This document shows positions 5,721 through 61,898 of a stretch of 64,000 nucleotides of DNA, piece after piece. The notes beneath the pieces were generated by a model that saw only the letters and a list, made by a program, of their open reading frames with translations, was not told the origin of the DNA and ran no database searches. The stretch is taken from the NCBI GenBank assembly GCA_024275015.1, contig JAJRZW010000001.1, forward strand, positions 706-64,705, read 5' to 3'. Numbering within the stretch: position 1 is the first letter of the stretch; the number at the start of each line of letters is the position of its first letter. Both the position numbers and the translations under genes were made by a program. The DNA is from Deltaproteobacteria bacterium (GTDB taxonomy: Bacteria > Desulfobacterota > Desulfobulbia > Desulfobulbales > JAJRZW01).

Positions 5721-5877
5721 TAACAGACTGTTGAAAAAGCCGTCCTGCCTTTTTCAACTCCCGGTTGGCCAAAACAAGTTCCGGCCAACCTCTCGATTTT
5801 ATTGGATTTTAAAAACCCAATAAAATCGGCGGTGCGTCGATGCACCGCGACCAGTCCGTTTTTTAACGGACTGGTAA
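5721..5877 (+). mobile_element. family-A MITE copy A1 (multi-hairpin, ~155 bp)
   Basis: TIR CAGACTGTTGAAAAA at the left and its inverted copy at the right. Flanked by direct GTAA/GTAA. Four internal hairpins. Confidence 0.8.
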
Positions 5878-5909
5878 CCCAAAAGGCTGATTGTTAAAGG
5901 GGTCATTTT

Positions 5910-7013
5910 TCAAGAAGCCATGCGAAACAATTTTTTTAGAAATCCTTCATCAGCGGTACTGTTTTCCTCTTCAAGGACGGCGAATTCCTCAAGCAGTTCT
6001 TTCTGTCTCGATGACAGCTTTTTTGGGGTTTTTACATCAACCTCAATGATCATATCACCGGTGCCGCCACCACGCAGCCGCGGGATTCCCTGTTTTTTAA
6101 GCCGCAGGGTGTCGCCGGACTGGGTCCCGGCCGGGACCTCAAGGGTCTTCTCTCCGTGGATGGTCGGAACCTCTATGCTGCATCCGAGGGCGGCCCTGGT
6201 CATGGAAAGAGGCAGGCGCAGGTGTATATCGGCACCGTCGCGGAGAAAAAACTCATGCGGTTCAACATAGAGAAAGACGTAGAGGTCTCCAGGTGGACCG
6301 TGGTGGCGACCGCCTTCACCCTCGCCGCTGACCCGCATCCGGGCGCCATGATCAACCCCGGCCGGGATTTTCAGTGACAGCCTTTTGCTTATCTCCTTGA
6401 GCCCATGCCCATTACAGACCTTGCACGGATCTTTGATGACCCGGCCTTCGCCCCGGCAGGTGGGACATGTGGTGCTGACCCGGAAAAATCCCTGAGAACG
6501 GATGACCTGACCCCGGCCCCGGCATTCGGGACATGTCTCGGCCTCCCGGCCTTCCCTGGTCCCGGATCCCCGGCACTCATCGCAGGTATCGGCGCGAGTG
6601 ATCTCGATTTCCTTTTCAGTTCCGAGAGCGGCGTCCATAAAGGTGATGTTGAGATCAAAACGGAGGTCGGCCCCGCGGATCGGGCCGTTTTGAGTCTGCC
6701 TTGCGCCGCCGAAACTGAAGAGATCGTCGAATATGTCGCCGAAACTTGAGAATATATCGTTGAAATTTCCCGGGCCCTGATAGCCGCTGTTTCTGAGTCC
6801 GTCAATGCCGTATTGATCGTATATCTGCCGCTTTTTCGCGTCGCCCAGAACTTCGTAGGCCTCGGCCGCTTCCTTGAAGCGTTCTTCCGCCTCTTTATTG
6901 TTTGGGTTGCGGTCGGGGTGATATTTGAGCGCCAGTTTCCGGTAGGCCTTTTTTATCTCTTCGGCCGTGCTGGATTGGTCAACCTTTAATGTCTGATAAT
7001 AATCCGTACCCAT
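5910..7013 (-). CDS. dnaJ: molecular chaperone DnaJ (type I, with zinc-finger domain)
   Basis: J-domain (YHPDRNP), a G/F-rich region and four CxxCxGxG repeats. Confidence 0.9.
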
Positions 7014-7025
7014 GATGTTATGATT

Positions 7026-7292
7026 TTATGTCGTTTGCGATTCAGCGGGTTCTTCCATTGGGGTTTCGGCCTTTTTTGTCTCGATTTTGCCGATTTCCTC
7101 GATATTGCCAAAGGTTACCTTCCCGGCGGCAATTTCACGCAGGGACGATACCGCCTCCTTGTTCTTGCATTCAACAAGATAAGGCAGGCCTTTGCGGTGC
7201 TGTTTGATCCGGGCAACCGCCAGATGAATCAGGGAAAAACGATTTTCGTTCCCTATTTTTGTCAGACAGTCTTCAACCGTAATTCTCGCCAT
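7026..7292 (-). CDS. rpoZ: DNA-directed RNA polymerase subunit omega
   Basis: 88 aa starting MARITVEDCL, with NRFSLIHLAVARIKQ, typical of RpoZ. Confidence 0.9.
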   Translation of the reverse strand: MARITVEDCLTKIGNENRFSLIHLAVARIKQHRKGLPYLVECKNKEAVSSLREIAAGKVTFGNIEEIGKIETKKAETPMEEPAESQTT

Positions 7293-7685
7293 GGCCGCAG
7301 CGTTCTCCTGGATTTGGTCCGCCGGATACCGTGGTTCCCGACAGTTATTTTAAGACATTCAAGATGAAGTCAGGTTAATGGATCATCGTTAAACACTTAA
7401 TTATAATCCTATCGTCGTAATTGGCAAATTGTTTTTTGTTATTCGGAATCAGGGCAGTTAAATAATCACTATGGCGCTGGTGCTATTTTCTTTATTTACG
7501 GCTGGATGGCATGGAAAGTGCTTTTAAAGCAACGGCATGGAGTACATATGGCGGAAATTACGGTTATGGTCAGCGGTGATGGCCGTTAAGACGGGGGCGT
7601 GGCCCGGTATTAAGGCGGTCGTGCTTCAGGTCGCAGGGGGGGGAATTTTTTGCCGTGCAAGGCCTTGCCGCTGACGGGAGGAGGC

Positions 7686-7910
7686 ATGAGGAGATTGTTG
7701 TTGATGTTGCTTATCGGTCTTGCCGGCTGTGTTGCCCGGGTGGATAGCCGTTTTGTCCGTCTGAGGGCGGAAGGGGCGGCCCCGGGGAGCATTTACGGGG
7801 TCGCGGTTTATCCCCGGCTTTCGGGGGACGCTGTCGGCACTGATCTGCCCGGACGTTTTGGCCCGGCCTGGAGGGCGGTCAGGGTGCATCCCGGCCACAA
7901 TTTTAATTGA
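7686..7910 (+). CDS. small lipoprotein, function unknown
   Basis: GGAGGAGG RBS upstream of ATG 7686. Signal MRRLLLMLLIGLAGC carries a lipobox. First gene of a four-gene lipoprotein cluster. Confidence 0.5.
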   Translation: MRRLLLMLLIGLAGCVARVDSRFVRLRAEGAAPGSIYGVAVYPRLSGDAVGTDLPGRFGPAWRAVRVHPGHNFN

Positions 7911-7929
7911 TTTATCCCGGAGGATGGTG

Positions 7930-8727
7930 ATGGGTAATTTTGTCGCGGGTCTGGTATGTCTTTTATCTTTTTTTACCGCCGTTCCGGTCATTGCCGCTGC
8001 CGGAACGGGGGAATCGGCATGGCAGCGCCCCGGTAATCAGGGCGGGGTTGCGGCCGGGGAGCGGAAATACTTTTATAATTATCCCCACCAGGTTCCGCCG
8101 GATTACGTTTACCGTACTGGCCGGATCTGGGCGCCGTTGTCGTTTATCCCCGGCGCGTCCCGGCCGGGGACTGTCCGGGACGAAAAAAAGTCTTTGCCGG
8201 GGGGGATGAGCCGGGGGGGGGAACTGGCCCTGGCGGTAAAGGGGATGGCGGCGCAGCTGGTAAGCGGCGGCCGGGATTATCTGGTTGATGATTATGTGGT
8301 CGCGGTGGCGAGTTTCGTTAACCTCGGTGATCTTTACCAGACCTCGTCTCTGGGACGTTATCTTGGGGAAGAACTCATGGGCGATCTTGCCCGGGCCGGG
8401 GTCGGGGTGGTTGAGATTCGGAAGACCCCGGGGCTTTTTCTTCGGCGTCAGGGGGGGGAGTACGGTCTGTCGCGTGACCTCGATGCGTTGAATCCGGTCC
8501 AGGACGCCCAGGCGGTGGTGGTCGGCACCTACACCTATGATAAATCGCAGATCCTGGTCAACGCCCGTCTCCTCCGTAATGGTGACAGCATGGTTATATC
8601 AACCGCGAGTCTGATACTTGACATGGATGAGCTGACCCGGTCTTTGCTGGCTGACGAGAACCAGTCGGTAAGCCGGCGTCAGAAACACGGCGGAGTGGTG
8701 CGGGTGCGTCAGGCCGCCGCCGAGTAG
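7930..8727 (+). CDS. FlgO-family-like envelope protein
   Basis: N-terminal hydrophobic segment, then an FlgO-like core (VASFVNLGDLYQTSSLGRYLGEELMGDLARAGVGVVEIRK...VVVGTYTYDKSQILVNARLL). Start chosen after GGAGG at 7919-7923; 7924 is an alternative. Confidence 0.6.
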   Translation: MGNFVAGLVCLLSFFTAVPVIAAAGTGESAWQRPGNQGGVAAGERKYFYNYPHQVPPDYVYRTGRIWAPLSFIPGASRPGTVRDEKKSLPGGMSRGGELALAVKGMAAQLVSGGRDYLVDDYVVAVASFVNLGDLYQTSSLGRYLGEELMGDLARAGVGVVEIRKTPGLFLRRQGGEYGLSRDLDALNPVQDAQAVVVGTYTYDKSQILVNARLLRNGDSMVISTASLILDMDELTRSLLADENQSVSRRQKHGGVVRVRQAAAE

Positions 8728-8765
8728 GAGGGGTATTTATGAACATGTGGCAATTATCGGGGACT

Positions 8766-8902
8766 CTGGAAAATGGTCTTTTCGCCCGATCCCGGCGGGA
8801 TGAGCAAAATGAAAATGCTCATATCGCCACGGCGGGACTGCGATGTTTGATTTTGCTCATTCCCCGGCCCCGGATGAAAAGCCTGACTCTTCAAGATACC
8901 CT
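8766..8902 (+). repeat. family-C repeat copy C1
   Basis: Aligns over ~135 bp with 37991-38127 and partly with 32228-32268. Contains the ATG (8874) used by the downstream lipoprotein gene. Confidence 0.75.
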
Positions 8903-9467: not shown

Positions 9468-9476
9468 GAGAGCGAT

Positions 9477-10130
9477 ATGCGAAACTTCACCGGCCTTGTC
9501 CGACCGTTGAAAAAACCGGCCATGGCTTTTTCGATCCTGCTCTTTTGTTTACTGCCGGCCTGTGTCATGGCTCCGGCGCCGCGGACGGCCGGGGCCGGGA
9601 TCGTCGAATCGCCGCCGGTGGTATTTGTCCATCCTCTCAATCATGAACTGTACCGGGGGGCGCGGCTGGCGGTGCTGCCGTTTGCGGGCGAAAATCGTGA
9701 GCTCGGGATGAACGCGGCCGCGGTGTTTCGTGACATCTTTCTTGCCAGTGGTCTGTTCAAAGCCGTTTTTGTGGTCGATAAGCAGGCGGGGACCCGGGCC
9801 CGGGCCCGGGCGGTCGCGGGCGATGCCGATCTGGTGGTATTTGCCCGGATCAACCGTGCCTTTATTGATGGCGGCGTCGGCGGCGCCGGGCTGGATGTGT
9901 CATTAAGGATATTGCATGGTAAGAGCGGCGATACGGTGTGGTATATGCGTCAGAGTGTGGAACGACCGGTACGGTGGCCGCGCAAGGACTTTGGCGCCCG
10001 TCTCGGTCGGGCTTTCAGTCCCCAAGCGGTGCTGGCGCCGGCGCCGGCCGCGGTGCTGCCGAATATGCTCACGGTTGTCGCCCGGGATATGGCCCGGGTG
10101 ATGGCCGACAGGAGACGGGCGGGTATCTGA
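9477..10130 (+). CDS. putative lipoprotein, function unknown
   Basis: AGGAG RBS. Signal ends LLPAC. The LAVLPFAGEN...ADLVVFARI pattern loosely resembles LpoB/FlgO/CsgG-fold lipoproteins. Confidence 0.5.
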   Translation: MRNFTGLVRPLKKPAMAFSILLFCLLPACVMAPAPRTAGAGIVESPPVVFVHPLNHELYRGARLAVLPFAGENRELGMNAAAVFRDIFLASGLFKAVFVVDKQAGTRARARAVAGDADLVVFARINRAFIDGGVGGAGLDVSLRILHGKSGDTVWYMRQSVERPVRWPRKDFGARLGRAFSPQAVLAPAPAAVLPNMLTVVARDMARVMADRRRAGI

Positions 10131-10200
10131 AAATTATGGATCCGTGAACTTCTGAAGGGGGCGGCCAAGGCACGGATTTCAGGAAAATGCGTATGCCCCG

Positions 10201-11907
<1,707 letters not shown>

Positions 11908-12277: not shown

Positions 12278-12622
12278 ATGTTTGGTATCGGTCTGCCCGA
12301 GTTAATTCTGATTATGGTCATTGCCCTGCTGGTGGTGGGGCCGGAGAAATTACCCGGCCTGGCGCGAACCATTGCCGGCTATGTGGTGGAGTTGAAAAAG
12401 GCCGCCAATACCCTGAAACAGAGCCTGAACGACGAAGAAGATCAGCGCCCCTGGGAAGGAACGCCGCGGGACTTTACCCTGCCGGAAGGGTTCTCTGCCG
12501 CGACTGGAATCGTGCCGGAACCGGAACCGGAACCGGAGAACGTGGACGCGCAGCAGGCGGCCCCTGCTGATACCGTCCCCGAATCCGGCCACGACCCTGA
12601 GGTCGAAGAAACCGATGGCTGA
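12278..12622 (+). CDS. tatA: twin-arginine translocase TatA/TatB-family subunit
   Basis: MFGIGLPELILIMVIALLVVGPEKLP is a canonical TatA/B N-terminus. Long acidic, Pro-rich tail. ATG 12278 preferred over GTG 12269. Confidence 0.85.
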   Translation: MFGIGLPELILIMVIALLVVGPEKLPGLARTIAGYVVELKKAANTLKQSLNDEEDQRPWEGTPRDFTLPEGFSAATGIVPEPEPEPENVDAQQAAPADTVPESGHDPEVEETDG

Positions 12623-13337: not shown

Positions 13338-13437
13338 TTTTCTCTCCCTCTGTTTTTCCGGGAAAACTTGACGAACTCGTAACAATTATCAGGATGGATA
13401 GTTTAAGGATTTTGATATAACAAGGAGTCAAACGCTC

Positions 13438-13560
13438 CATCAACACCACCCTGAACTCGATTTAACCCTTTGATATAAATAAGTATAATCAAGTGGGGTA
13501 AACCTCGCGCATGACGGTGTCCTGAAATCTTTACAGAGTGTGATTGTTTTTGCATTAGGG
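13438..13560 (+). repeat. family-F repeat copy F1 (promoter-like core)
   Basis: ~125 bp homologous to 61612-61738. Contains TTAACC-16 nt-TATAAT (13462-13489). Confidence 0.7.
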
Positions 13561-15569: not shown

Positions 15570-15570
15570 A

Positions 15571-17571: not shown

Positions 17572-17729
17572 TTAACAGACTGTCGAAAAAGCCGTCCTGG
17601 CTTTTTCAACTCCCGGTTGGCCAAAACAAGTTCCGGCTAACCTCTTGATTTCACTGTAATTTTTCAACCCGGTGAAATCGGCGACGCGTCCGTGCGCCGC
17701 GACCAGCCCGTTTTTCAACGGGCTGTTAA
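17572..17729 (+). mobile_element. family-A MITE copy A3
   Basis: Full copy flanked by TTAA/TTAA. TIRs CAGACTGTCGAAAAA and TTTTTCAACGGGCTG. Confidence 0.8.
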
Positions 17730-17844: not shown

Positions 17845-17974
17845 TTGTTGGCCTTGCGATAAATTGCGGGTCAACGGTAATCGCGCTTCTAACTTGTTGA
17901 AATTACGTAGATCAATTTCCGTTTGAGAGACTTGTTACGACTTCATCTTGGTTGATGAAGTCGTAACAAGTCTC
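17845..17974 (+). repeat. family-E repeat copy E1, ending in a 48-nt perfect hairpin
   Basis: Homologous to 32096-32204. Positions 17927-17947 and 17954-17974 are perfect 21-nt inverted arms around a 6-nt loop. Confidence 0.75.
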
Positions 17975-23438: not shown

Positions 23439-24838
23439 TGCATATCCTCCAGGTTGCGGCCGACAGCGAGGGAAAGTTCGGCTGTGGCTGTTCCCAGTTG
23501 CATTTGCGCCGTTGAAAGGGCGAGACGGTTGTTAAGCCAGGCGTCATCAGCCCGGGTGAGGGCGGTAAAGCTGATACTCCCGGCCTCGAGACCGCGGCGG
23601 GCGACGGCAAGGGCGGCCCGGGACAGGGGGACGACGTGTTCTTTAAGCAGTTTAATCCGCCGCCGGTGACGGTCGGCTGTATCCCAGGCGTCGCGGGCTG
23701 TGCCCCGGGCCCGGTGTTTTGCGGCCTTGACTTTTTCATCGGCCGCGTTTACCGCGAGGCGCAGACGTTCAAGGTAAAAGAGGTTGGCGCCCTTGAATCC
23801 GTCCGTTATCCGTCCGGTGGCGGTCATTTTTTTATCCGTGAACCTGCCGCTGATTTCGCCGCCCATACGTCGCGACAGACCGGCGCTGAAGTCGGGAACG
23901 GCCATGAAACGGCCGAGATCGTACATGGTCGCCAGCGTCAGACGGCGGTTTTTTGCCAGCCGCAGGTCAAGGTTTGTCTGTTCGGCCGCGGCGATCATCG
24001 CCTTTGGGTCTGGCGGCGTCGGCGTTGTCGCCGGGGGGATGAAGGTGAAATGGTCAATGGGGGCAGCGCAGAGTTCGAAGAGGTCGCGGCGCAGGGTCTT
24101 TTCCTCTTCTTCAAGATCGCGGAGCCGGGTGGTGAGTTTTTGTTTTTTTATCCGGATGGCGATCACCTGTCCATAGGGGGTCTTGCCGCTGCTATAGCGC
24201 GTCATGGCGACCTTTTCGAGATCACGGAAAAGTTTAAGACTTTTGCCGGTGAGGCCTTGGGCGGTCTGGTTATGGATCAGGCGGAAATAGAGTTTCCGGC
24301 CCCGGGTTATGGCCCGGGCAATGGTCTTTTCCCTCGCGATTCGGGCCTGTTCCACCTCAAGGGCGGCAAGGCGGCTGCGCAGGCTCGCTGATTGCGGCAG
24401 GGCAAGGTCGGTGGTGGCCATTTTTACCGGCCCGACCCCGGGGGCAAGCCCGGCAGTGAAGGATTGATAGGTGGAAAGGAGGTCGTTGATCGCCTGCTCC
24501 TGGCCGTATGTCTCGATCCTGGCCGCCACCGTGGCCCGGGTGCTTTTAATCGCGGGGTTATGTCTCAGGATGAGGGCGCTTAAACGGTTGAGTTCGTTGT
24601 TGCGGTCAAGTCCGGCCTGATCGATGAACGGGATGGTGGTATCGGCGGCGACAGTGATTTTCGCCGTTTCCAGGGATGGGGCCGCCGGGCGTTCTGTCTG
24701 GGGCATGGTGGCCGGTTCGAGGCCTGCCGCGGCCTCGGGCGGTGCGGCAAAAAGCCGCTTTTGTTCGCCGTAGGTCGCGGCGCAGGCGGGGATGGTGGCG
24801 ACGATGGCCAGAAGCATCAAGGTGGTCCGGATGGTCAT
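23435..24838 (-). CDS. TolC-family outer-membrane efflux protein (second of a tandem pair)
   Basis: 467 aa with a signal peptide and coiled-coil-rich TolC/OEP-like repeats. Overlaps both neighbours by 4 nt. Confidence 0.8.
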   Translation of the reverse strand: MTIRTTLMLLAIVATIPACAATYGEQKRLFAAPPEAAAGLEPATMPQTERPAAPSLETAKITVAADTTIPFIDQAGLDRNNELNRLSALILRHNPAIKSTRATVAARIETYGQEQAINDLLSTYQSFTAGLAPGVGPVKMATTDLALPQSASLRSRLAALEVEQARIAREKTIARAITRGRKLYFRLIHNQTAQGLTGKSLKLFRDLEKVAMTRYSSGKTPYGQVIAIRIKKQKLTTRLRDLEEEEKTLRRDLFELCAAPIDHFTFIPPATTPTPPDPKAMIAAAEQTNLDLRLAKNRRLTLATMYDLGRFMAVPDFSAGLSRRMGGEISGRFTDKKMTATGRITDGFKGANLFYLERLRLAVNAADEKVKAAKHRARGTARDAWDTADRHRRRIKLLKEHVVPLSRAALAVARRGLEAGSISFTALTRADDAWLNNRLALSTAQMQLGTATAELSLAVGRNLEDMQ

Positions 24839-27507: not shown

Positions 27508-27594
27508 GCCGAAGTGGCGGAATTGGTAGACGCGCTAGGTTCAGGGTCTAGTGCCCGTACGGGTGTGGGAGTTCGAGTCTCCCCTTCGGCACCA
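27508..27594 (+). tRNA. tRNA-Leu (anticodon CAG)
   Basis: Cloverleaf: acceptor GCCGAAG/CTTCGGC, anticodon loop TTCAGGG, long variable arm, T-arm GGGAGTTCGAGTCTCCC, encoded CCA. Confidence 0.9.
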
Positions 27595-27649: not shown

Positions 27650-27665
27650 ATGTCTTATTGTTGAC

Positions 27666-27841
27666 AGACTCGTAACAATTCCCCGCGTAGGCGTCTTCGG
27701 CGATTTCCGGAAAAAGCGGCGGGCGGCGGGATGCGTTAAAAAACCCCGCATGTCTGAGGGTTTAGCCCGAGTTCGGGGTTTTAGCATCCCGCTGCCCGAA
27801 AATCGCCGTTTTCAGCCGGAGCGGGGGATTGTTACGAGTTC
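27666..27841. repeat. inverted pair of family-B repeats (B3 reverse, B4 forward) forming a ~175-bp imperfect palindrome
   Basis: Left arm GACTCGTAACAATTCCCCGCG...GGCGGGATGC. Right arm GCATCCCGC...GCGGGGGATTGTTACGAGTTC. Confidence 0.7.
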
Positions 27842-27899: not shown

Positions 27900-28033
27900 G
27901 ATGGCCAAGCAATAATTCCGATATACCAAGGATCGGTCTCTTTTGGAGAGCGAGGTCATATCCTCGCCATGGCGGGACCGAGCGGGCAAAAGGAGGTCAC
28001 TAAGTCGTAGATCGGAATTATTGTTTGGCCATC
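27900..28033. mobile_element. family-D palindromic MITE-like element copy D3
   Basis: 23-bp TIRs GATGGCCAAGCAATAATTCCGAT and ATCGGAATTATTGTTTGGCCATC, with central CCTCGCCATGGCGGGAC. Confidence 0.7.
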
Positions 28034-29050: not shown

Positions 29051-29097
29051 TCAGGCCGTTGAAAAAGTCATGGACGGCTTTTTCAACAGTCTGTTAA
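29051..29097 (-). repeat. family-A fragment A4 (terminal hairpin only)
   Basis: GTTGAAAAAGTCATGGACGGCTTTTTCAACAGTCTGTTAA. Confidence 0.65.
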
Positions 29098-31245: not shown

Positions 31246-31995
31246 TTAAGTATTCATGTCGTTCATATAGCTTGGGCGGTGAGAGGCCGCGTCGTAGGGG
31301 ACGCGGCCTTTTTTTTCAAGCAGGGCCAAAAGTTCGTCCAGGTGTTTTTCCCGGTTCAGGCGGTCACGGCCGATTATATCAAAACGGCAATTGCAGCCGG
31401 TGAGCTGGCCCGCGCACCAGGGGCAGATCTCCACCGGGCATCCGGGCGCGTGGAACTCGTTGTCACCGGTACCGCAGACAGGGCAGAGCCTGATGTCGGT
31501 GGCCACGGGGCAATATAGCTCCAGGTGGTCGATGGTTGGGTATTTTTTTTTGAAGGCATCGTCGTCGGCAAAGGCGAAAAAGGTCAATACCTCCCTGACC
31601 GGGATTCCCTGGCTCAGGGGGCCCAGAAACTCGACTTTTTCCATGCTGACCAGATAGAGATAATTGTCTGTAAAGGTGATGGCGCAGAGGAGGAAAACAC
31701 CGTTTTTTCTCGTCAGTTCCCGGATCTCCCTGATTCCGTCTTCCCTTGCCTCGGGGAGAAAGCTGTAGAAATTGTGGAGGACGTTCATCGCTATCCGATC
31801 AGCGGCGAATTCGTGGATTAGTTCTTTCACCTCGTCACGGTGGGATTCAGGGCTGTTGTATTCGGCCAGCATCTTGGTCTCTTCGGTTATCTCTTTGATC
31901 GGGCGCATATTATCATTTCCTGTGGACTTATGGGTATCCTGAAAGATGGTCTTTTCGTCTGATGCTGCGTCATGAGCAAGACGAAGAATGCTCAT
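31246..31995 (-). CDS. hypothetical protein with C-terminal eight-cysteine cluster
   Basis: 249 aa ORF (alternative ATG at 31908). Cys cluster: CPVATDIRLCPVCGTGDNEFHAPGCPVEICPWCAGQLTGCNC. No family recognised. Confidence 0.5.
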   Translation of the reverse strand: MSILRLAHDAASDEKTIFQDTHKSTGNDNMRPIKEITEETKMLAEYNSPESHRDEVKELIHEFAADRIAMNVLHNFYSFLPEAREDGIREIRELTRKNGVFLLCAITFTDNYLYLVSMEKVEFLGPLSQGIPVREVLTFFAFADDDAFKKKYPTIDHLELYCPVATDIRLCPVCGTGDNEFHAPGCPVEICPWCAGQLTGCNCRFDIIGRDRLNREKHLDELLALLEKKGRVPYDAASHRPSYMNDMNT

Positions 31996-32032
31996 CCCGC
32001 CGGCGGGAGATGGCCTCGCTTGTAAAAGCGAT

Positions 32033-32087
32033 GCCGCTCTTTCCGGAAATCACCGAAGCCGCCTCCGCGGGGATTTGTTACTGGTCC
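32033..32087 (+). repeat. family-B repeat copy B5
   Basis: GCCGCTCTTTCCGGAAATCACCGAAGCCGCCTCCGCGGGGATTTGTTACTGG. Confidence 0.7.
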
Positions 32088-32095
32088 ATCAATTA

Positions 32096-32204
32096 TTGTT
32101 GGCCTCGCAATAAATTGCGGGCCAACGGCAATTGCACTTCTGACTTATTGAAATTACGTGGACCCGCTTCCGTTTGAGATATTTGTTACGACTTCATCTT
32201 GTTG
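32096..32204 (+). repeat. family-E repeat copy E2
   Basis: Aligns with 17845-17950 but lacks the second hairpin arm. Confidence 0.7.
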
Positions 32205-32227
32205 TTTCGCCATCCCGGAGATTATTA

Positions 32228-32268
32228 CGGATTCATCATTCCCGGGTCTCGGACGAAAATCTTCATTT
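32228..32268 (+). repeat. family-C fragment C3
   Basis: CATTCCCGGGTCTCGGACGAAAATCTTCATTTTTCAATAT matches the 3' part of C1 and C2. Confidence 0.55.
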
Positions 32269-32925
32269 TTCAATATATCCTGATATTTTTTTTATCCATT
32301 TCCGGATTTCGGCGGTCATGTCCGCGGCCTGAGTGATGGCGGTAACCACCGCGATCCTCCGGGCCCCGGCGGCCAGAAGTTCATCAAGATGAGCAAACTT
32401 TATTCCCCCCATTACCGTAAACGGTAGGTCTGATCTTTCTGACCACCCGGCGATTGCCCCGCTGCCTGAAAAATGATGCAGGCCTTTCTTGGTTGAGGTC
32501 GGGAACAGGGGGCCGATATTATAATAGGACGCCCCCCGGGTCGCGGCGCTTTGGACCTGCTCCGCCCGGTTGGCCGAGACCCCGATGATCATTTCCGGCA
32601 AAAGCCCGCGGGCGGCTTCGGCGGGGATATCGCTGTTTCCCAGGTGGACGCCGTCGGCGTCGGCGAGGATGGCGATATCGATGCGGTTGTTGACCATGAA
32701 CAGGGCTCCGGCGGCGCGGGTTTTATCGCGGAACATCATGGCCTTCTGGTAGAGCGTGCGGTCGTCGGAGACCTTGTCGCGCAGCTGGACTATTTTTGCG
32801 CCGCCGGCAAGGACCGCGTCAAGCCATTCCCGGTCACTTCTTCCGGCACATAATGGCTCACAGGATACCGGGTAAACCGTGACCTGGTCGGTGAAGATCT
32901 GCATCCGGCGGCTGAGGTTGTTCAT
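32263..32925 (-). CDS. thiE: thiamine-phosphate synthase
   Basis: 220 aa with IVQLRDK, DGVHLG and GGI motifs typical of ThiE. Confidence 0.9.
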   Translation of the reverse strand: MNNLSRRMQIFTDQVTVYPVSCEPLCAGRSDREWLDAVLAGGAKIVQLRDKVSDDRTLYQKAMMFRDKTRAAGALFMVNNRIDIAILADADGVHLGNSDIPAEAARGLLPEMIIGVSANRAEQVQSAATRGASYYNIGPLFPTSTKKGLHHFSGSGAIAGWSERSDLPFTVMGGIKFAHLDELLAAGARRIAVVTAITQAADMTAEIRKWIKKISGYIEK

Positions 32926-35264: not shown

Positions 35265-35477
35265 TTATCAGACCGTTGAAAAAGCCGTCCATGGCTTTTC
35301 AGCCATAGTTGCTGAATCCGTGACGGCTTAGTGGCAACCGAGTATATATTTATCTGAATTCATGCGTTTTTTACCGGAATTTCACTCCGGCGGAAATTTT
35401 ACCCCGCCGCCCTTCGGGCGTCCGGGAACGGCGCGTCCATGCGCCGCGTACAGTCCGTTTTTCAACGGACTGTTATA
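35265..35477 (+). mobile_element. family-A MITE, long variant A5
   Basis: Family-A termini with a divergent interior. Flanked by TTAT/TTAT. The right flank supplies the TAA stop of the response-regulator gene. Confidence 0.7.
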
Positions 35478-37446: not shown

Positions 37447-37575
37447 TCTCAGATCGTTGAAGAAAGCGTCCATGGCTTTTAAACCCCGGTTGACCAAAAC
37501 TTTGTTTCGGCCAGCCTCTCAATTTCGCTGGCGCGTCCCTGCGCCGCACACAGTTCGTTTTCCAACGGACTGTCA
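37447..37575 (+). mobile_element. family-A MITE, shortened copy A6
   Basis: Family-A termini with an internal deletion. Overlaps the ORF-track N-terminal extension of the kinase. Confidence 0.65.
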
Positions 37576-37982: not shown

Positions 37983-37990
37983 AAGGGTAT

Positions 37991-38127
37991 CTTGAAAATG
38001 GCCTTTTCGCCCGATCCCGGCGTCATGAGCAAAATGAAAAATGCTCACATATTCTCGATATGCTACGCTTTTTAATTTTGCTTATTCCTTGGCCTCGGAC
38101 GAAAATCCTCATTTTTCAAGATACCCT
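37991..38127 (+). repeat. family-C repeat copy C2
   Basis: Aligns end to end with 8766-8902. Confidence 0.75.
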
Positions 38128-38282
38128 TAACAGAGTGTTGAAAAAGCCGTCCTGTCTTTTTCAACCGTCGGTTGGATAAAACAAGTTTCATCCAACCTCT
38201 CGATTTCACCGGGTTTTTTAAACCGGTGAAATCGGCGGCGCGTCCATGCGTCGTAACAGCCCGTTTTTCAACGGGCTGTTAC
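38127..38282 (+). mobile_element. family-A MITE copy A7
   Basis: Full copy with flanks TTAA/TTAC. Confidence 0.75.
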
Positions 38283-41340: not shown

Positions 41341-41496
41341 CTATCAGAGTGTTGAAAAAGCCGTCCTCTCTTTTTCAACCGCCGGTTGGATAAAACAAGT
41401 TTCATCCAACCTCTCGATTTCACCGTGTTTTTCAAACCGGTGAAATCGGCGGCGCGTCCATGCGCCGCAACCAGCCCGTTTTTCAACGGGCTGCTA
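41341..41496 (+). mobile_element. family-A MITE copy A8
   Basis: Full copy flanked by CTAT/CTAT. The right flank supplies the glnS TAG stop on the minus strand. Confidence 0.8.
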
Positions 41497-43197
41497 TGGT
41501 TGCTGGCCTCGTAACAAGTCCCCGCGGAGGCGTCTTCGGCTGTTCCATGTGTCGCGAAGAGTCACGGTGCGGTTGAATACCAGTCGCTTGCGGGTTGAGT
41601 CGCCTGAATCAAGACAGAAATAACCGTTGCGTTCAAACTGGTAGTTTTCGCCCGGCCTTGCCGCGGCCAGCGACGGTTCAAGCCGGGAGTCGGTCATCAC
41701 CGTGAGGGAATCGGGATTGACGCACCCCAGGAAATCGCCGTCCCCCTCGGGATCGGGCCGGGTGAAGAGGCGGTCGTAGAGCCTGACCTCGGCGGGGACC
41801 GCGTGCCGGGCTGAGACCCAGTGGATGGTCCCCTTGACCTTGCGTCCGTCCGGGGCGTTGCCACCGCGGGTTTCGGGGTCGTAAGAGCAACGTAATTCTA
41901 CGACCACCCCGTTGTCGTCCTTTATCACCTCCTCACAGGTGATAAAATAGGCGTAGCGCAGTCTCACCTCGCGGCCGGGGGCGAGGCGTTTGAATTTTTT
42001 CACCGGCTCTTCCATGAAATCGCCCCGTTCAATGTATATCTCGCGGGAAAAGGGGATTTTTCTCTCTCCCATCTCCGGCCGCTTGGGATGGTTGGCGGCG
42101 GGCAGGTCTTCTTCCAGTTCCTCCGGGTAATTGCTGATTACCACCTTCAGAGGATCAAGCACCCCTAAGACCCGGGGGGCGTTTTCGTTAAGGTCGTCCC
42201 GCAGGCAATGCTCGAGGAGTTCGACCTCAACGGTTGAATCTTTTCTGGCAACGCCGATGCGGTAGCAGAAGTAACGGATCGCCGCCGGGGTGTAGCCGCG
42301 ACGGCGGATACCGGAAAGGGTGGGCATCCGCGGGTCGTCCCATCCTGAGACTACGTTCTCGTTGACCAGCTTGAGGAGTTTACGCTTGCTGACCACGGTA
42401 TAGCTGAGGTTGAGGCGGGCGAATTCTATCTGCCGCGGGTGGCATGAAATGGTGATATGGTCGAGGACCCAGTCGTATAAGGGACGGTGGTATTCAAATT
42501 CGAGGGTGCAGAGGGAATGGGTGATGCCCTCGAGGGCGTCTGAGATCGGATGGGTGAAATCGTACATCGGATAGACACACCAGGCGTCGCCTGTGCGGGG
42601 ATGGCTGGTGTGCATGATCCGGTAGATAACGGGATCGCGCAGATTTAGATTGCCGTTTTTCATGTCTATCTTCGCCCGCAGCACTTTTGAACCGTCCGGA
42701 AACTCCCCGGCCCGCATCCTCTCGAAGAGGTCGAGATTTTCCTCCGCCGATCGTTCGCGGAACGGGCTTTCCTTTCCCGGTTCGGTGAGGGTGCCGCGGT
42801 GTTCGCGGATCTCGTCGGCAGTGAGCTCGCAGACATATGCCAGCCCTTTTTTTATCAGTTCTTCGGCGAAACCATAGAGCTTTTCGAAATAGTCCGAGGC
42901 GTGAAAGAGGTGGTCGCCCCAGTCGAAACCGAGCCATTTGATATCCGCCTTGATCGCGTCGACGTATTCCTGCTCCTCCTTGCTTGGGTTGGTGTCGTCA
43001 AAGCGCAGGTGGACCCGGGTATGGGGGTATCCGGCAGCGATGCCGAAGTTGAGGCAGATGGATTTGGCATGGCCGATATGGAGATAGCCGTTGGGCTCGG
43101 GGGGGAAACGGGTGACGATTTCCGCGTGTCGACCGTTTTCAAGGTCGGAGTCGATGATCTTGCGGATAAAGTCGCGGGGACGGTCGTTGTTTGTCAT
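41494..43197 (-). CDS. glnS: glutamine--tRNA ligase
   Basis: 567 aa with [17 protein letters not shown] (HIGH) and a KMSKS-region equivalent. GlnRS-like throughout except the last ~15 aa. Confidence 0.95.
41507..41546 (-). repeat. family-B repeat copy B6, inside the glnS 3' end
   Basis: CCTCGTAACAAGTCCCCGCGGAGGCGTCTTCGGCTGTTCC. Translated as the GlnRS C-terminal tail. Confidence 0.7.
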
Positions 43198-44704: not shown

Positions 44705-44790
44705 TTAACAGATCGTCTAATAAAGTCGTCCATGGCTTTCTGTACTGCCGTTGGCAGAAACAAGTTTCGCCTAATCTTTTGATTCCGTAG
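44705..44790 (+). repeat. family-A fragment A9
   Basis: TTAACAGATCGTCTAATAAAGTCGTCCATGGCTTTC..., a degenerate left half. Confidence 0.55.
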
Positions 44791-44989
44791 AATTCTTAAT
44801 CCGGGAGAGTGGACGGCGCATCTGCGGTGTCGGCAAGTCGTTGATATATCGAAGTATAATAAACACTCTTGCCTCCTCGTATCTGCGCTGTTCCCGAACG
44901 TCACGGATTCAGGGTGTTTTATAAAACTTTTATGGGCCGCAGGCAACAGGGGAGTTTTTGTCGCGGTTGTGTTAGGATTACAGCGGTTG

Positions 44990-45034
44990 CAGCCCGTTGA
45001 AAGAGCCAGGACGGCTTTTTCAGCAGTCTGTTAA
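44990..45034 (-). repeat. family-A fragment A10
   Basis: CAGCCCGTTGAAAGAGCCAGGACGGCTTTTTCAGCAGTCTGTTAA. Confidence 0.6.
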
Positions 45035-45512: not shown

Positions 45513-45598
45513 GATGGTGAGCATATGGATTATGTTGATGAATGTCTCGTCATTGCGATTACCCCCCTGTCCTTGCCTTCGCAGATTGGGAGATGCCG

Positions 45599-45642
45599 CT
45601 ACCAGACCGTTTTAAAAGCCATGGACGGCTTTTGAAACTCCG
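45599..45642 (+). repeat. family-A fragment A11
   Basis: CAGACCGTTTTAAAAGCCATGGACGGCTTTTGAAACTCCGG. Confidence 0.55.
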
Positions 45643-45658
45643 GTAAAGGGGAGGCCGG

Positions 45659-48354: not shown

Positions 48355-49675
48355 TTTTTTTACGGGACCATCAACCTTGAACTATCAGCGGGCCTGGGAA
48401 TTTCTCGATAAACTGCAGTTTTTCAAGATCAAGCTTGGTCTTGATTCCATGCGTATCTTTTTAGACCGTCTCGGACGCCCGGACCGGCGGCTTCGTTTTA
48501 TCCATCTGGCCGGGACCAACGGCAAGGGCTCGGTGGGGGCGATGCTCCACGCCATTTTATCTGCGGCCGGATTCAGGGTCGGATTTTATACCTCGCCCCA
48601 CCTGAGTTCGGTGCGGGAGCGGTTCCGGATCGGTGATGAATATATCAGTGAGGATGATTTTGCCTTTCACTCAGGCGAGATCATCGCGGCCATGGGGGCG
48701 GAACGGATCACCTATTTTGAGTTCACCACCGCCCTGGCTCTGCTCTGGTTTGCCGCCCGGGATGTGGATATCGTTATTCTTGAAACCGGTCTCGGCGGCC
48801 GTCTTGACGCCACCAATGTCATTACTCCGGAACTGAGCCTGATTACCAATGTCGCCATGGATCATGAGGCATATCTGGGAAACACGATTACCTCGGTGGC
48901 GACGGAGAAGGCGGGGATCATCAAGCCCGGGGTTCCGGTGATCAGCGGGGTCGAAGATCCGGAGGCGGCGGCGGTGGTGGCGGGATCCTGTTGTCAGCGA
49001 CGGGCGCCGCTTTTTCGTCTTGGACGTGAGTTCACCTTTACCGTCGAGGCGGATGGATGGGGGTTCCAGGGGCGCGATCGGCATTATGACCATTTGCCGC
49101 TGGCCCTTGCCGGGCGGCATCAACGACGAAACGCGGCCCTGGCCCTGGCCGCCCTTGATGCTCTGGACGGAACCGGAATCCGGGTCTGTGAGGAGGATAT
49201 ACGCCGTGGCCTCGCCGGGGTAAGGTGGCCGGGACGGCTTGAATTTTTTTCCCTTGCCGGGCCGCTATGCGGCATCAGGGCCGGGGACCGGCGGCAGGTA
49301 CTTGTTGACGGGGCCCATAATCCCGCCGGGGCCGCGGCTCTGGCCCATGCCCTCGCGAACGGTTATCGCCGTCAACGGCTTATTGTGGTCTGGGCCGCGA
49401 TGGCCGATAAAGACATGGCCTCCACCCTTGGCAGGATTACTCCCCTGGCCGGGGTGATCTTTCTGACCCGGCCCGAGTCTGAGCGTTCAGCCTGCACTGA
49501 TGCCCTGGCCGCCTCGATTGCCGGGTTTTCGGGTGAAGTACATTGTGAGGATGATGTTGCCGCCGCCCTGACCGCGGCCTTTGTCACGGCCGGACCGGAT
49601 GATCTGGTCCTGATTGCCGGTTCCCTGTACCTTGTCGGCCGGGCCCGGGAGATAATGCTTGGAGGGTTGGTCTGA
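48326..49675 (+). CDS. folC: bifunctional folylpolyglutamate synthase / dihydrofolate synthase
   Basis: AGTNGKGS P-loop and a Mur-ligase fold pattern. TTG start 7 nt after AAGGAG. Confidence 0.9.
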   Translation: MTMPGLSGLDFFTGPSTLNYQRAWEFLDKLQFFKIKLGLDSMRIFLDRLGRPDRRLRFIHLAGTNGKGSVGAMLHAILSAAGFRVGFYTSPHLSSVRERFRIGDEYISEDDFAFHSGEIIAAMGAERITYFEFTTALALLWFAARDVDIVILETGLGGRLDATNVITPELSLITNVAMDHEAYLGNTITSVATEKAGIIKPGVPVISGVEDPEAAAVVAGSCCQRRAPLFRLGREFTFTVEADGWGFQGRDRHYDHLPLALAGRHQRRNAALALAALDALDGTGIRVCEEDIRRGLAGVRWPGRLEFFSLAGPLCGIRAGDRRQVLVDGAHNPAGAAALAHALANGYRRQRLIVVWAAMADKDMASTLGRITPLAGVIFLTRPESERSACTDALAASIAGFSGEVHCEDDVAAALTAAFVTAGPDDLVLIAGSLYLVGRAREIMLGGLV

Positions 49676-49676
49676 G

Positions 49677-49988
49677 ATGGGATGGGATGACCACGGCTTC
49701 GGGGTAGTGGACGACGAATTTATCCGCCGGGAAAAGAACAAGGCCCGCGACCTGCGTCGCGGCCGTTGGTGGAAACAGAAAATATCATCCGGCCGCTGTC
49801 ATTATTGCGGCGAAAGATTTAAGCCGGCGGAACTGACCATGGATCATGTGGTTCCCATTGCCCGGGGCGGTTTGAGTGTAAAGAATAATCTGGTCGCGGC
49901 CTGTACGGGGTGCAACAGCGCCAAGAAGGCCAGTCTTCTCCAGGAGTGGTCCGGAGATTACCGGGTCGATGGTGGGGGAGGGGGATAG
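49677..49988 (+). CDS. small HNH endonuclease
   Basis: 103 aa. CHYCGE...DHVVPIARGG...NLVAACTGCN is an HNH motif. Confidence 0.8.
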   Translation: MGWDDHGFGVVDDEFIRREKNKARDLRRGRWWKQKISSGRCHYCGERFKPAELTMDHVVPIARGGLSVKNNLVAACTGCNSAKKASLLQEWSGDYRVDGGGGG

Positions 49989-51718: not shown

Positions 51719-51832
51719 CTTAGCAGACCGTTCAAAAAGCCGTCCATGGCTTTTTGAACGGTTTGCTGGGCAAAACAGGTTTCGTCCAACATCTTGATTG
51801 CACTGGATTCCTCAATTTAGATGAAATCAGCG
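51719..51832 (+). repeat. family-A degenerate copy A12
   Basis: CAGACCGTTCAAAAAGCCGTCCATGGCTTTTTGAACGG followed by diverged hairpins. Confidence 0.6.
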
Positions 51833-52048
51833 GAGTGTCAATGGTCCCTTCAAGGTACAAAAATGGAAGAGAAAAAGTCGCGGCAACTTCAGGCTTTGCT
51901 TAAATATTGAATTGACTATTTCCCTTATCGGATATATTATTAGATCTAAGTTATGTTTTTGGTAATGAGAGTTTCGGGGCCGGCCCGATGGAGTTTATTA
52001 CCGAAAGTAAATGCGGCGCAAGCCCCAAAAGAACCGGAGGTTTACTGT

Positions 52049-57367: not shown

Positions 57368-57437
57368 ACGACCGGTGTGCATTTGCTTGTGGGCGCCGGG
57401 ATAATCTGCTAATAAAAAAGACCTGCCCGTACCAAAA

Positions 57438-57648: not shown

Positions 57649-58977
57649 ATGACTGAAATCTTTCCGCCAGGGGTCAAGCGCATGAAGGGGATAACAGCCG
57701 GGATCACTGCCGCCGATATCGTCTTTGACCGCGAGCATGTCTGGCACCCATATTCCTCCATGGTCAGTCCGCCGCCGGTGTGGCCGGTGTCCGGTGCCGT
57801 GGGCTGCCGGATAACTCTTGCCGACGGTCGGGAACTGGTGGACGGGATGGCTTCGTGGTGGTCGGCGATTCATGGTTATGGTCATCCGCGCCTGAACGCT
57901 GCCGCCCATGAGCAGATTGACCGTTTTTCCCATGTGATGTTCGGGGGGTTGACCCATGAATCGGCGATCGGGCTCTGCCGCCGCCTGGTGAGTCTTACCC
58001 CCGGAGGGCTTGATCGGGTATTTCTCTGCGACTCCGGCTCGGTGGCGGTGGAGGTGGCGATCAAGATGGCGCTTCAGTATCACCATGCCCGTGGGCGGTC
58101 GGAAAAACACCGGCTGGTCACGATAAGAAACGGCTACCACGGTGATACTTTCGCGGCGATGAGCGTCTGTGACCCGGTGACCGGGATGCACGGTATTTTC
58201 AAAGGCGTTCTGTCGGAGCAGCTTTTCGTCCCGGCCCCGCAGGTCACATTTGACGGGGAATTTGACGAGGCCGATATAGCCCCCCTGGCCGCGTTGATTG
58301 AACAACATTGCCATGAACTCGCGGCCCTTATCCTTGAGCCGGTGGTCCAGGGCGCCGGTGGGATGCGTTTTTATTCTCCGGCCTATCTTGCCCGGGCCCG
58401 GGATCTCTGCGACCGTTACGATATCCTCCTGATCGCCGATGAGATTGCCACCGGCTTCGGCCGTACCGGCAGGCTTTTTGCCTGTGAGCACGCAAAGGTC
58501 AGTCCCGATATTCTCTGCCTCGGCAAGGCGATGACCGGCGGTTACCTGTCGCTCGCCGCCACCCTGACTACCGCCGGGATTGCCGAAACCATCTGTTCCG
58601 GCGCGGCGGGCTGTTTCATGCATGGTCCCACCTTCATGGGCAACCCTCTCGCCTGCCGGATTGCCTGTGAGAGTATTGATCTGTTGCTGGAGTCTGACTG
58701 GAAGAGGCGGGTCGCGGCCATAGAGACCCGGACAGGACAAGGCCTTGCCCCCTGTGCCGACCTTGAGACGGTGAAAGATGTACGGGTTCTCGGGGGAATC
58801 GGGGTGGTCGAACTGCGGGAGGCGCCGGACGGCGGCGTGCTTCAGGAGATGCTGGTGGCCGAGGGAGTGTGGGTCAGGCCCTTTGGTCGCCTGGTCTATA
58901 TCATGCCTGCCTATACCATCAGTGACGCGGAGGTCGATTGTCTGACCGCAGCTATATTCAATGTTCTTTCGTCGTGA
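57649..58977 (+). CDS. bioA: adenosylmethionine-8-amino-7-oxononanoate aminotransferase
   Basis: 442 aa with [17 protein letters not shown] and [12 protein letters not shown], plus the PLP lysine context [10 protein letters not shown]. Confidence 0.92.
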
Positions 58978-59013
58978 TGATTTTTTATCGCAAAGTAGCG
59001 ATGTTACGGCTCA

Positions 59014-60540: not shown

Positions 60541-60681
60541 AAAAGATTCTGTATCCTGTCAGGAAATATGATAGCACTCAATAAACCCCACCCCCACGCT
60601 ATAATGTCACGGTCTGTAAGGGTTTCAGGGAGCGCTTACGGAAATATAGTCGCGGCCGGGAGGTGATGCCGGGGGGGCGTT

Positions 60682-61068
60682 TCAGGCAGAGAACTCTTCA
60701 TCGGCTTCGTTAAAATCGATGGTGTTGGCCCAGATGAAGTACTCCAGTTGTTCAAGCTGTTTTTTAGTCAGTTTTTTGAACTGTACCCCGCAGCGGCGGG
60801 TGATGTTGATCCCGTCATTGATGGCGCAGTCGGAGATGACTTTCAGGGGTATGTCTTCAAGGCAGAGTTCACCGTTACCAAAGAGGATGCCTAAATCAGA
60901 CGGGGGCATGTCTTTCCATTCACCCCGGTCAACGTATCTGAAGGCAAGGCCGCCGCGGCTGATATCGATGATCTCGCCGACCCTGGAATTGAGGGCGCAT
61001 GTGCCTGATTTGGCCCGGTAACGTTTATGTGCTCTTCGTTCGTTTTCGCCTGCCTTCTTTTCACTCAT
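60682..61068 (-). CDS. PilZ-domain protein
   Basis: RRAHKRY and DISRGGLAF match the RxxxR / DxSxxG c-di-GMP-binding motifs. ATG 61068 preferred over 61101. Confidence 0.7.
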   Translation of the reverse strand: MSEKKAGENERRAHKRYRAKSGTCALNSRVGEIIDISRGGLAFRYVDRGEWKDMPPSDLGILFGNGELCLEDIPLKVISDCAINDGINITRRCGVQFKKLTKKQLEQLEYFIWANTIDFNEADEEFSA

Positions 61069-61084
61069 AGAGTTCGGAAATGGT

Positions 61085-61453
61085 TTACGCCTCACCCTCA
61101 CAATTATTGATGATGAAATTTTTTATCCTTGCCTGCTGATTTGCGTCGATCCCCACGAATTCCAATGACAGACGCTGCATTTTGATTGCGCTCTGGGGAA
61201 TCTGGTTATTCCCGGCCCGGCGGGAACGCACGCGAAAGGTAATTTGATCAAGACAGAGATTGTCGTTACCGAAGATATGACCGGTACCCTGATTTATCGG
61301 GTCCCATTCTTCCTGTCGGAGACAGGTGAAGGACAGACCCCCGATGCTGATATCGATTATTCGGCCGAATCGGGTTGAATCCATGGCGAAAAAACCATTT
61401 TTTACCCGATACCTTTTTGACTCTCTGCGTTCTCTTTCCATCGTACCGCGCAT
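61085..61453 (-). CDS. PilZ-domain protein (tandem paralog)
   Basis: RRESKRY and DISIGGLSF motifs, with the same architecture as the downstream gene. Confidence 0.7.
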   Translation of the reverse strand: MRGTMERERRESKRYRVKNGFFAMDSTRFGRIIDISIGGLSFTCLRQEEWDPINQGTGHIFGNDNLCLDQITFRVRSRRAGNNQIPQSAIKMQRLSLEFVGIDANQQARIKNFIINNCEGEA

Positions 61454-61611
61454 TGGTAAAACCTCCCGGATTACGGAAATATAATTTGTCCTTCCGTTAT
61501 TCCTCCGTTTCTGATTTTACCGTAAAAAAGGAAAAAAGAGAATAAACAAAATCTCTGATCTCCAGGGACGTCGGCTGTCAACGGGGTCGGGTGATCAGTA
61601 GTTGAGTGCTT

Positions 61612-61738
61612 CATTAACACCACCCTGCACGCGCTTTAATCCTTTAATGTACCTAAAATTATAATCAAAGGGGGTAAAACGCGCGCATGGCGGTGTCCCT
61701 GAAGTTTTTACAGAGTGCGTCTTTTTTGTATCAGGTGC
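61612..61738 (+). repeat. family-F repeat copy F2
   Basis: Homologous to 13438-13560. TTAATC-18 nt-TATAAT at 61636-61665. Confidence 0.7.
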
Positions 61739-61740
61739 GT

Positions 61741-61898
61741 TTAACAGTCTGTTGAAAAACGGACTGTATGCGGCTGATGTCCGCGCCGTCGATTTTGCCG
61801 GGTTGAAAAACCCGGTGAAATCGAGAGTTCGGCCGGAAATTGTTTTGGCCAGCCGGAGAGATAAAAAGCCATGGACGGCTTTTTCAACAGTCTGTTAA
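61741..61898 (-). mobile_element. family-A MITE copy A13
   Basis: Full copy flanked by TTAA/TTAA. TIRs CAGTCTGTTGAAAAA and TTTTTCAACAGTCTG. Confidence 0.8.

Follow-up and report, generated by a model that had tools for sequence, protein, structure and literature searches.

Classical MITEs of bacteria (miniature inverted-repeat transposable elements) include Correia/NEMIS of Neisseria, RUP and SPRITE of S. pneumoniae, and ERIC (PMC10969869, PMC2229807). Among the autonomous insertion sequences (ISs), trapped IS5-group elements measure 1282-1387 bp and have inverted repeats of 16-18 bp and direct repeats of 4 bp; direct repeats of this length are reported for the Paracoccus IS5-group elements ISPha2 and ISPmar3 and for ISPse1 of the IS1182 family (PMC3281130). 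Here we analyze Family-A, a family of ~150-bp repeats in 64,000 nucleotides of a Desulfobulbia genome (contig JAJRZW010000001.1 of assembly GCA_024275015.1, positions 706 to 64,705), referred to below as the window. The initial annotation of the window had proposed that these repeats are MITEs, and their features bear this out: (i) the elements are short and non-coding, with no open reading frame (ORF) conserved among copies, (ii) they carry terminal inverted repeats (TIRs) and occur in many copies, and (iii) they are flanked by genuine 4-bp target-site duplications (TSDs). We conclude, with a probability of about 0.8, that Family-A is a genuine MITE family mobilised by a DDE transposase of the IS5/IS1182 type.

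The Family-A repeats are a real family, far beyond chance. A profile trained on six full copies was used to scan the window with nhmmer, and it recovered all 13 loci of the initial annotation, which had described their sequences correctly; its list fell one short, as a further short fragment resembling hairpin 1 (CCGACCGTTGAAAAAACCGGCCATGGCTTTTTCGATC) was detected at 9496-9556 (plus strand, E = 4.3e-4). Full or near-full copies were found with E = 1e-45 to 1e-52, partial copies with E = 1e-15 to 1e-22, and short fragments with E = 6e-10 to 7e-3. With at most one mismatch allowed, 26 occurrences of the terminal motif CAGNNNGTYGAAAAA were counted in the window, versus 0.78 +/- 0.89 expected from dinucleotide-preserving shuffles, and a repeat finder sorts the copies into direct and inverted families. 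The density is about one copy per 4.6 kb. Window copies are 73-95% identical to each other (mean 80%) and ~72% identical to copies from other genomes, and several copies are truncated. Given this divergence within the window and the truncated copies, the family looks old and is probably inactive in the source genome.

Full copies are 148-152 bp long without the flanking duplications. The left end reads CAG(A/T)(C/G)(T/C)GT(T/C)GAAAAAG and the right end, in reverse complement, CAG(C/T)C(C/T)GTTGAAAAAC, so that the TIRs are imperfect and span 15-16 bp. All five flank pairs reported in the initial annotation were confirmed: GTAA/GTAA (5720-5723 and 5874-5877) around the 150-bp full copy at 5724-5873 (plus strand, E = 7.5e-51), TTAA/TTAA around the 150-bp full copy at 17576-17725 (plus, E = 2.2e-52), TTAT/TTAT around a 204-bp variant at 35269-35472 (plus), CTAT/CTAT around the 149-bp full copy at 41345-41493 (plus), and TTAA/TTAA around the 150-bp full copy at 61745-61894 (minus, E = 9.3e-48). 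Two window copies have imperfect flanks: the 148-bp full copy at 38131-38278 (plus, TTAA/TTAC), which is 95% identical to the copy at 41345, and a 123-bp copy with decayed ends at 37450-37572 (plus, TTCT/TCAT, E = 1.5e-18).

To assess the duplications statistically, TIRs 40-250 bp apart were paired in the window and in related loci from metagenome-assembled genomes (MAGs) of Desulfobulbia, yielding 26 complete elements. Identical 4-nt flanks were found in 20 of these; with a chance match probability of 0.087, derived from flank composition, the binomial P is 9e-17. The left and right flanks agree at position 1 in 23 elements and at position 4 in 24, and the 20 non-palindromic left flanks give 16 direct matches and no inverted-repeat match. 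The 4-bp TSD is thus genuine. The target, initially annotated as NTAW, proves to be NTAN with a preference for Y at position 1: 44 of the 52 flanks have the TA core, and only 18 conform to strict YTAR, tetranucleotides such as CTAT, TTAT, and TTAC being common. Duplications without TA were also observed (TCAG/TCAG and CCAA/CCAA). Two other readings of the flanks were rejected. The tetranucleotide is not part of the element, as demonstrated by the flank statistics and the non-TA duplications, and the duplication is not of TA alone, since it extends to positions 1 and 4. The latter observation bears on an origin like that of RUP, in which a transposase of the IS630/Tc1-mariner type mobilises the element and 2 bp (TA) are duplicated. 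The prevalent TA core fits such a transposase, and Family-A ends begin with CAG, as do many Tc1-like ends; the 4-nt duplications and their non-TA examples contradict it, however, and the TIRs match IS5/IS1182 ends (see below), which makes this origin very improbable.

An empty site provides further evidence of transposition. Neither CydA nor GlnS of the window has an exact match on record; GlnS is at most 84% identical to any other, its closest named matches coming from Desulfobulbaceae and Desulfurivibrionaceae MAGs. In the nearest relatives, L001 and L003 (comparison loci are cited by L numbers), the intergenic DNA near glnS is too diverged, and only the spacer between gltX and a DUF3617 gene could be aligned. 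In L001 (GCA_026993265.1), this spacer holds a 140-bp element at 5207-5346 that has the TIRs of Family-A (CAGCCCSTTGAAAAAC) and an unrelated interior and lies between two TTATs (GGTGTTTTAT[CAG...CTG]TTATAAAACTTT). The orthologous site in the window, at 44913-44946, lacks the element and has a single TTAT (GGTGTTTTATAAAACTTT, 44913-44930). The joined L001 flanks align to it with a score of 40, versus a maximum of 32 among 296 random window segments. The initial annotation had pointed to the number of tetranucleotides at an empty site as the feature to check; one rather than two is present, which supports transposition. The L001 element belongs to a sister MITE family, with a second, 211-bp member at 10086-10296 that also has CAGCCCSTTGAAAAAC at both ends; apparently, one type of transposase serves several MITE families.

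Autonomous elements with the same ends were found in other bacteria. A BLAST search of plasmids with a synthetic mini-element identified CTAG followed directly by CAGGCTGTTGAAAAAG in rhizobial plasmids. In Methylosinus pMSC49b, this end precedes an ORF for a transposase that has the domains DUF772 and DDE_Tnp_1 and scores 217.6 bits against the transpos_IS5_4 model NF033581 (cut-off, 140 bits). Rhizobial plasmids also contain three intact ISs of 1502-1526 bp, L087 (Microvirga pMVF16-3), L088 (S. meliloti pMl1), and L089, of which L088 and L089 were retrieved through protein similarity rather than through the TIR. All three have the TIR CAGG(C/T)(T/C)GTTGAA(A/G)AAG, flanked by TTAG/TTAG, CTAG/CTAG, and CTAG/CTAG, respectively; the transposases score 238-282 bits against NF033581. 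Within the TIRs, 3' of the transposase gene, these ISs also have a conserved second ORF for a hypothetical protein of 114 aa (L087, 1692-2036; L088, 1701-2045; L089, 1689-2033). Further IS5_4 copies fetched by protein identity (L210-L212) have the TIR and CTAG/CTAG flanks.

Metagenomes were scanned for contigs in which a fixed distance separates the TIR from two motifs of the DUF772 domain, GRP and RWF. At least 120 contigs were identified, and they fall into two classes. Class 1 is of the IS5_4 type, with elements of 1.27-1.34 kb and flanks that are almost always YTAR, for example TTAG/TTAG in L110, L129, L136, L148, and L205 and CTAA/CTAA in L119. Class 2 is of the IS1182 type (396 bits against NF033551), with elements of 1.5-1.6 kb in which the left TIR is followed by an A5-stem-loop-stem-T5 hairpin resembling hairpin 1 of the MITE. 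Class 2 elements mostly lie inside terminator-like palindromes and duplicate the entire hairpin; thus, in L114, L123, L135, L171, and L201 (many of them human-gut contigs), a whole hairpin of ~25-30 bp is directly repeated on both sides, in contrast to the 4-bp NTAN duplication.

Taken together, the autonomous IS5_4-type ISs measure 1.27-1.53 kb, have the common TIR CAGnnnGTTGAAAAA(G/C) at both ends, and lie between 4-bp YTAR flanks; the two sides usually agree, though not in every case. Their TIR matches the MITE TIRs at 13-16 of 16 positions, and the right TIR of L185 (CAGCCCGTTGAAAAAC) matches the right TIR of the MITE at 16 of 16. The likeness to IS5 noted in the initial annotation hence gains support at the family level from the NF033581 ISs. 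As judged by sequence similarity, the MITE ends are those of the clade formed by the IS5 group and IS1182.

As to which member of this clade supplied the transposase, the short TA-centred duplication favours the IS5 group, and the left-end hairpin favours IS1182. If the partner belonged to the IS1182 family, the MITE would be an internal-deletion derivative of an IS1182-type IS of ~1.6 kb. IS1182-type elements share the TIR of the MITE; L150 and L091 start with CAGACTGTTGAAAAAG, which is identical to the left TIR of the window copies (16/16) and is followed by the same hairpin layout, and some members have 4-bp flanks, namely, the 1595-bp element L186 (TTTA/TTTA) and ISPse1 (PMC3281130). On the other hand, most of the IS1182-type elements seen duplicate the whole hairpin, as the Family-A MITEs never do, and their junctions lack the TA core that dominates the MITE flanks. 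We regard an IS1182-family partner as possible but unlikely. The A5-stem-T5 layout of hairpin 1, shared with the IS1182-type left end, suggests that this hairpin was probably inherited from the parent IS.

Several observations weigh against mobilisation of Family-A by an IS5/IS1182-type transposase. The relaxed NTAN target fits neither of the examined IS sets exactly; in particular, the examined IS5_4-type ISs are found almost only at YTAR, versus 18 of 52 MITE flanks. Of the 24 IS5_4-type ISs on metagenome contigs, only 11 have identical flanks; non-identical flanks may reflect chimeric assembly, but the case for a 4-bp TSD of the ISs is weakened. The left-end hairpin and the perfect left-TIR match are features of IS1182-type elements (L150 and L091) and not of IS5_4-type ones, and the empty/filled pair involves a sister element of a relative rather than a window copy. 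Finally, no autonomous IS with Family-A TIRs was found in the window or in ~190 kb of Desulfobulbia MAG DNA, either as TIRs paired at a distance of 600-3500 bp and accompanied by 4-bp repeats or by tblastn with an IS5 transposase. With the rhizobial and L185 transposases as queries, protein homology searches retrieved only close relatives from Alpha- and Gammaproteobacteria and nothing from Desulfobulbia, a plasmid BLAST with a Desulfobulbia-type mini-element gave nothing useful, and the MITE model showed no co-occurrence with the 120 metagenome IS loci or with L210-L212. The initial annotation had likewise noted the lack of a transposase in the window, and none is present among the 55 window ORFs scanned, all recognisable ones being housekeeping genes.

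From the shared ends, we infer a transposase of the DUF772 and DDE_Tnp_1 type, which is found in the IS5 group of the IS5 family and in the sister family, IS1182. Supplied in trans, this DDE transposase would bind the 15-16-bp TIRs (left, CAG(A/T)C(T/C)GT(T/C)GAAAAAG; right, CAG(C/T)CCGTTGAAAAAC). By analogy with known DDE insertion sequences, the chemistry is presumably cut-and-paste: the element would be excised and inserted at a staggered 4-nt cut centred on TA (NTAN), and repair of this cut would produce the 4-bp duplication. Copies persist between genes, at times exactly on stop codons, where a TA-containing target is available and the duplication restores the stop.

The interior of the element is built of palindromes. 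Six window copies were aligned with ten from other genomes, and folding of this 16-copy alignment with RNAalifold revealed five successive hairpins. The initial annotation had correctly described hairpins 2 and 3 but counted four in total, having missed the one formed by GGCGGCGCG/CGCGCCGC, which is hairpin 4 and lies between hairpin 3 and the right-end hairpin. In hairpin 1, the inner left TIR pairs with its inverted copy (GTTGAAAAAGCC/GGCTTTTTCAAC), and hairpin 5 holds the right TIR. The structure pairs 94.7% of cells in the alignment, versus 27-55% when it is slid by 1-3 columns. Changes on both sides were observed in 12 of 43 hairpin pairs (44 cells), and the observed covariation score was reached by none of 500 shuffles. 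One copy folds at -69 and -77 kcal/mol on its two strands, with z ~ -9 for each. The numbers of pairs with G.T (11) and with A.C (9) favour neither strand; thus, the conserved objects are DNA palindromes, kept by compensatory changes, and not a strand-specific RNA.

These hairpins could alternatively belong to structured units with a function for the host, such as terminators, stabilisers of mRNA 3' ends, or small RNAs, which either only look like MITEs or were exapted after insertion and whose hairpins are under selection. Such units would explain the extensive pairing with its compensatory double changes, the low minimum free energy on either strand, the conservation of the architecture between genomes at ~72% copy identity, and the independent insertions that two genomes have beside the dnaJ stop codon (see below). 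However, neither strand is favoured as an RNA would require, none of the hairpins fits a simple terminator consensus in a consensus scan, and no Rfam family matches Family-A: in the window only two tRNAs reach the gathering threshold, and the best sub-threshold scores on a Family-A copy are 17.8 bits against a threshold of 73.5 and 10.4 against 100. The occurrence of copies in both orientations, in divergent, convergent, and tandem spacers, and in many truncated forms also argues against a host function. Moreover, palindromes can be restored without selection by a known mutational mechanism, the correction of quasi-palindromes through template switching. The upkeep of the hairpins may be explained either by selection, for mobilisation or for a host role, or by such selection-free correction, and we consider host-functional units an improbable explanation of the family.

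Equally doubtful is the broader proposal that the five-palindrome interior is functional, be it in mobilisation or for the host. In one version, the palindromes are needed for mobilisation, and the GTTGAAAAA cores could act as extra transposase sites or as hairpin substrates. In the other, Desulfobulbia could have co-opted the element as a portable module (3'-end or insulator) that is preferentially kept at stop codons. If true, a functional interior would account for the survival of the architecture at ~28% divergence and for its recurrence, with different sequence, in the gammaproteobacterial MITEs L035 and L055. Concerning these cores, every full copy has extra inward-facing copies of the TIR core GTTGAAAAA, with CCGNNNGTTGAAAAA in hairpin 1, and some copies have a further core in the loop of hairpin 3 that is not conserved in the subfamily of MAG WFOD01. 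Internal cores were located at 5750-5764, 17602-17616, 17660-17674, 38157-38171, and 41371-41385; they could be additional transposase-binding sites.

Family-A is modular, as its variants show, with element lengths of 42-235 bp. The 204-bp variant at 35269-35472 has the ends and hairpins 1, 4, and 5 of full copies together with other central modules, hairpin 3 is absent from the 123-bp copy at 37450-37572, and a subfamily of ~233 bp with a different central module is found in WFOD01. A 68-bp element, L024, is a deletion derivative that retains both ends and the TSD. The smallest forms, of ~42 bp, are pairs of back-to-back TIRs: the mini element at 29052-29093 (minus strand, E = 5.9e-10), with a 6-nt spacer, has TTAA as the outer flank and an unmatched inner flank, and the one at 44990-45030 (minus, E = 7.6e-9) also has the outer flank TTAA. 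The remaining window copies are incomplete. A near-full copy truncated at the right end lies at 11608-11749 (minus, left flank TCAA, E = 3.5e-45). A decayed copy at 44709-44843 (plus, left flank TTAA, E = 8.8e-15) covers model positions 2-119, its right end being unrecognisable, and a partial copy at 51724-51854 (plus, left flank TTAG, E = 6.3e-22) covers positions 2-124 and has a complete inner TIR copy. The weakest member is a degenerate hairpin-1 fragment at 45592-45646 (minus, E = 7e-3).

Without exception, the copies are located in spacers between real genes; these spacers are tandem, convergent, or divergent, and copies occur in either orientation. That the copies are always intergenic, as initially annotated, is true once over-long ORF calls are corrected with the help of Pfam matches. 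For example, the purA profile match begins at residue 135 of a 567-aa ORF, which places the copy at 11608-11749 upstream of the real purA start. The copy at 5724-5873 is located 33 nt 3' of the dnaJ stop codon, and in WFOD01 a copy lies exactly on the dnaJ stop codon (CTAA; L031, 450-609, WFOD01000202.1); the two were inserted independently, in opposite orientations. The duplication regenerated the stop codon in two cases, namely, the TAA of dnaJ in WFOD01 and the TAG of glnS in the window, the latter on the minus strand within the right TSD (41494-41497) of the copy at 41345-41493. In 5 of 27 elements, the TSD coincides with the stop codon that ends an ORF of 120 codons or more, against a rough expectation of ~9%, which is a trend only. 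Abundant intergenic elements with many hairpins also recall REP/REPIN-type palindromes spread by a RAYT (IS200/IS605-like Y1) transposase. REPs, however, lack the TIRs and TSD, the duplication at Family-A-type ends was demonstrated by comparison of empty and filled sites, and no RAYT or Y1 gene occurs among the 55 window ORFs scanned; an origin of this kind is thus hardly credible.

Outside the window, genuine Family-A elements with the same architecture were found in at least three other Desulfobulbia MAGs, WFOD01 (~27 loci among the matches listed), CAYRGZ01, and DDXK01. About half of the matches listed in the scan of species-representative genomes are noise from coding sequences (the reverse complement of ...DGFFD...). 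Elements that share the first 22 nt (CAGnnTGTTGAAAAAGCCGTCC) and YTAR-type flanks but have different interiors occur in other groups, namely, Gammaproteobacteria (L035 and L055, also with five hairpins), Nitrospirota (L011 and L033), Woeseia (L083), and Dethiosulfatarculus (L075). Searches of the literature for the TIR string and for MITEs in Desulfobulbaceae returned no match to Family-A, nor did Rfam; the family appears to be undescribed so far, while this kind of element is well known.

Other repeats and features were observed in the window. Copies of a second repeat family of ~48-60 nt (...GCCGCTTTTTCCGAAAATCGCCGGAGACGCCTCCGCGGGGACTTGTTACGAG) are located at 735-782, 11842-11899, 27661-27726 (reverse complement), 32029-32092, and 41495-41540 (reverse complement). 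The last copy is read as the final ~15 codons of glnS, a C-terminus absent from relatives, whose GlnS ends with ...DTWGKKAG* or ...DTWAKKK*. A third family, with copies 62-89% identical, is found at 8759-8902, 31932-32281, and 37984-38127; one of its copies directly abuts the MITE copy at 38131, which shows that a spacer can hold repeats of different families, clustered or nested. Two intergenic repeat pairs, of 106 nt (17845-17950 and 32096-32201, 86% identical) and 60 nt (13423-13482 and 61597-61656, 75% identical), were also identified, as was a 58-nt inverted repeat with an 18-nt spacer (27900-28033) just 3' of tRNA-Leu (27508-27594). ARAGORN predicts tRNA-Ser(gct) at 12512-12590 (minus) and tRNA-His(atg) at 24240-24326 (plus), neither of which is called by Rfam; they are probably false positives, as both fall within protein-coding ORFs, a tatA-like one and that of an outer-membrane efflux gene. 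At 49659-49988 (plus), an ORF for a small HNH endonuclease of 109 aa overlaps the end of a Mur-ligase-family gene.

Family-A leaves the current understanding of MITEs unchanged, but it shows how a dense MITE family shapes the DNA between genes in uncultured Desulfobulbia. ORF calls are inflated, with several ORFs running into copies, MAG assemblies are broken, and stop codons can be occupied exactly, as at glnS in the window and dnaJ in a relative. Across several phyla, the CAGnnnGTTGAAAAA terminus is common to ISs of the IS5 group, ISs of the IS1182 family, and MITEs with several unrelated interiors, which suggests a single conserved mode of end recognition for DUF772-type transposases.

Comparison of Family-A with the known systems revealed both shared and distinct features. 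IS5-group elements (transpos_IS5_4; L087, L088, L185, and the Paracoccus ISPha2 and ISPmar3) share with it the 16-bp CAGnnnGTTGAAAAA(G/C) TIR and the 4-bp duplication centred on TA (PMC3281130 for ISPha2 and ISPmar3); they differ in their length of 1.27-1.53 kb, in encoding a DUF772/DDE transposase of 345-370 aa (plus, in the rhizobial elements, the 114-aa ORF), in an almost strict YTAR target, and in the absence of a hairpin inside the left end. IS1182-family elements (transpos_IS1182; L114, L150, L186, and ISPse1) share the TIR motif, the left-end A5-stem-loop-stem-T5 hairpin, and, in some members, 4-bp duplications, whereas they are 1.5-1.6 kb long, encode a transposase of 450-500 aa, and are mostly inserted in terminator-like palindromes with duplication of the hairpin and no TA core. 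REP, BIME, and REPIN sequences are likewise abundant intergenic palindromes whose palindromy is kept by paired changes, but they have neither TIRs nor a TSD and depend on a Y1 transposase. The classical MITEs resemble Family-A in being 100-160 bp long, in having TIRs and a strong secondary structure, and in using targets that contain TA; like Family-A, they also cluster between genes and nest with other repeats. They have no sequence similarity to Family-A, which is distinguished by its modular five-hairpin interior and its ends of the IS5/IS1182 type, and Correia and RUP duplicate TA only, in contrast to the 4 bp duplicated by Family-A.

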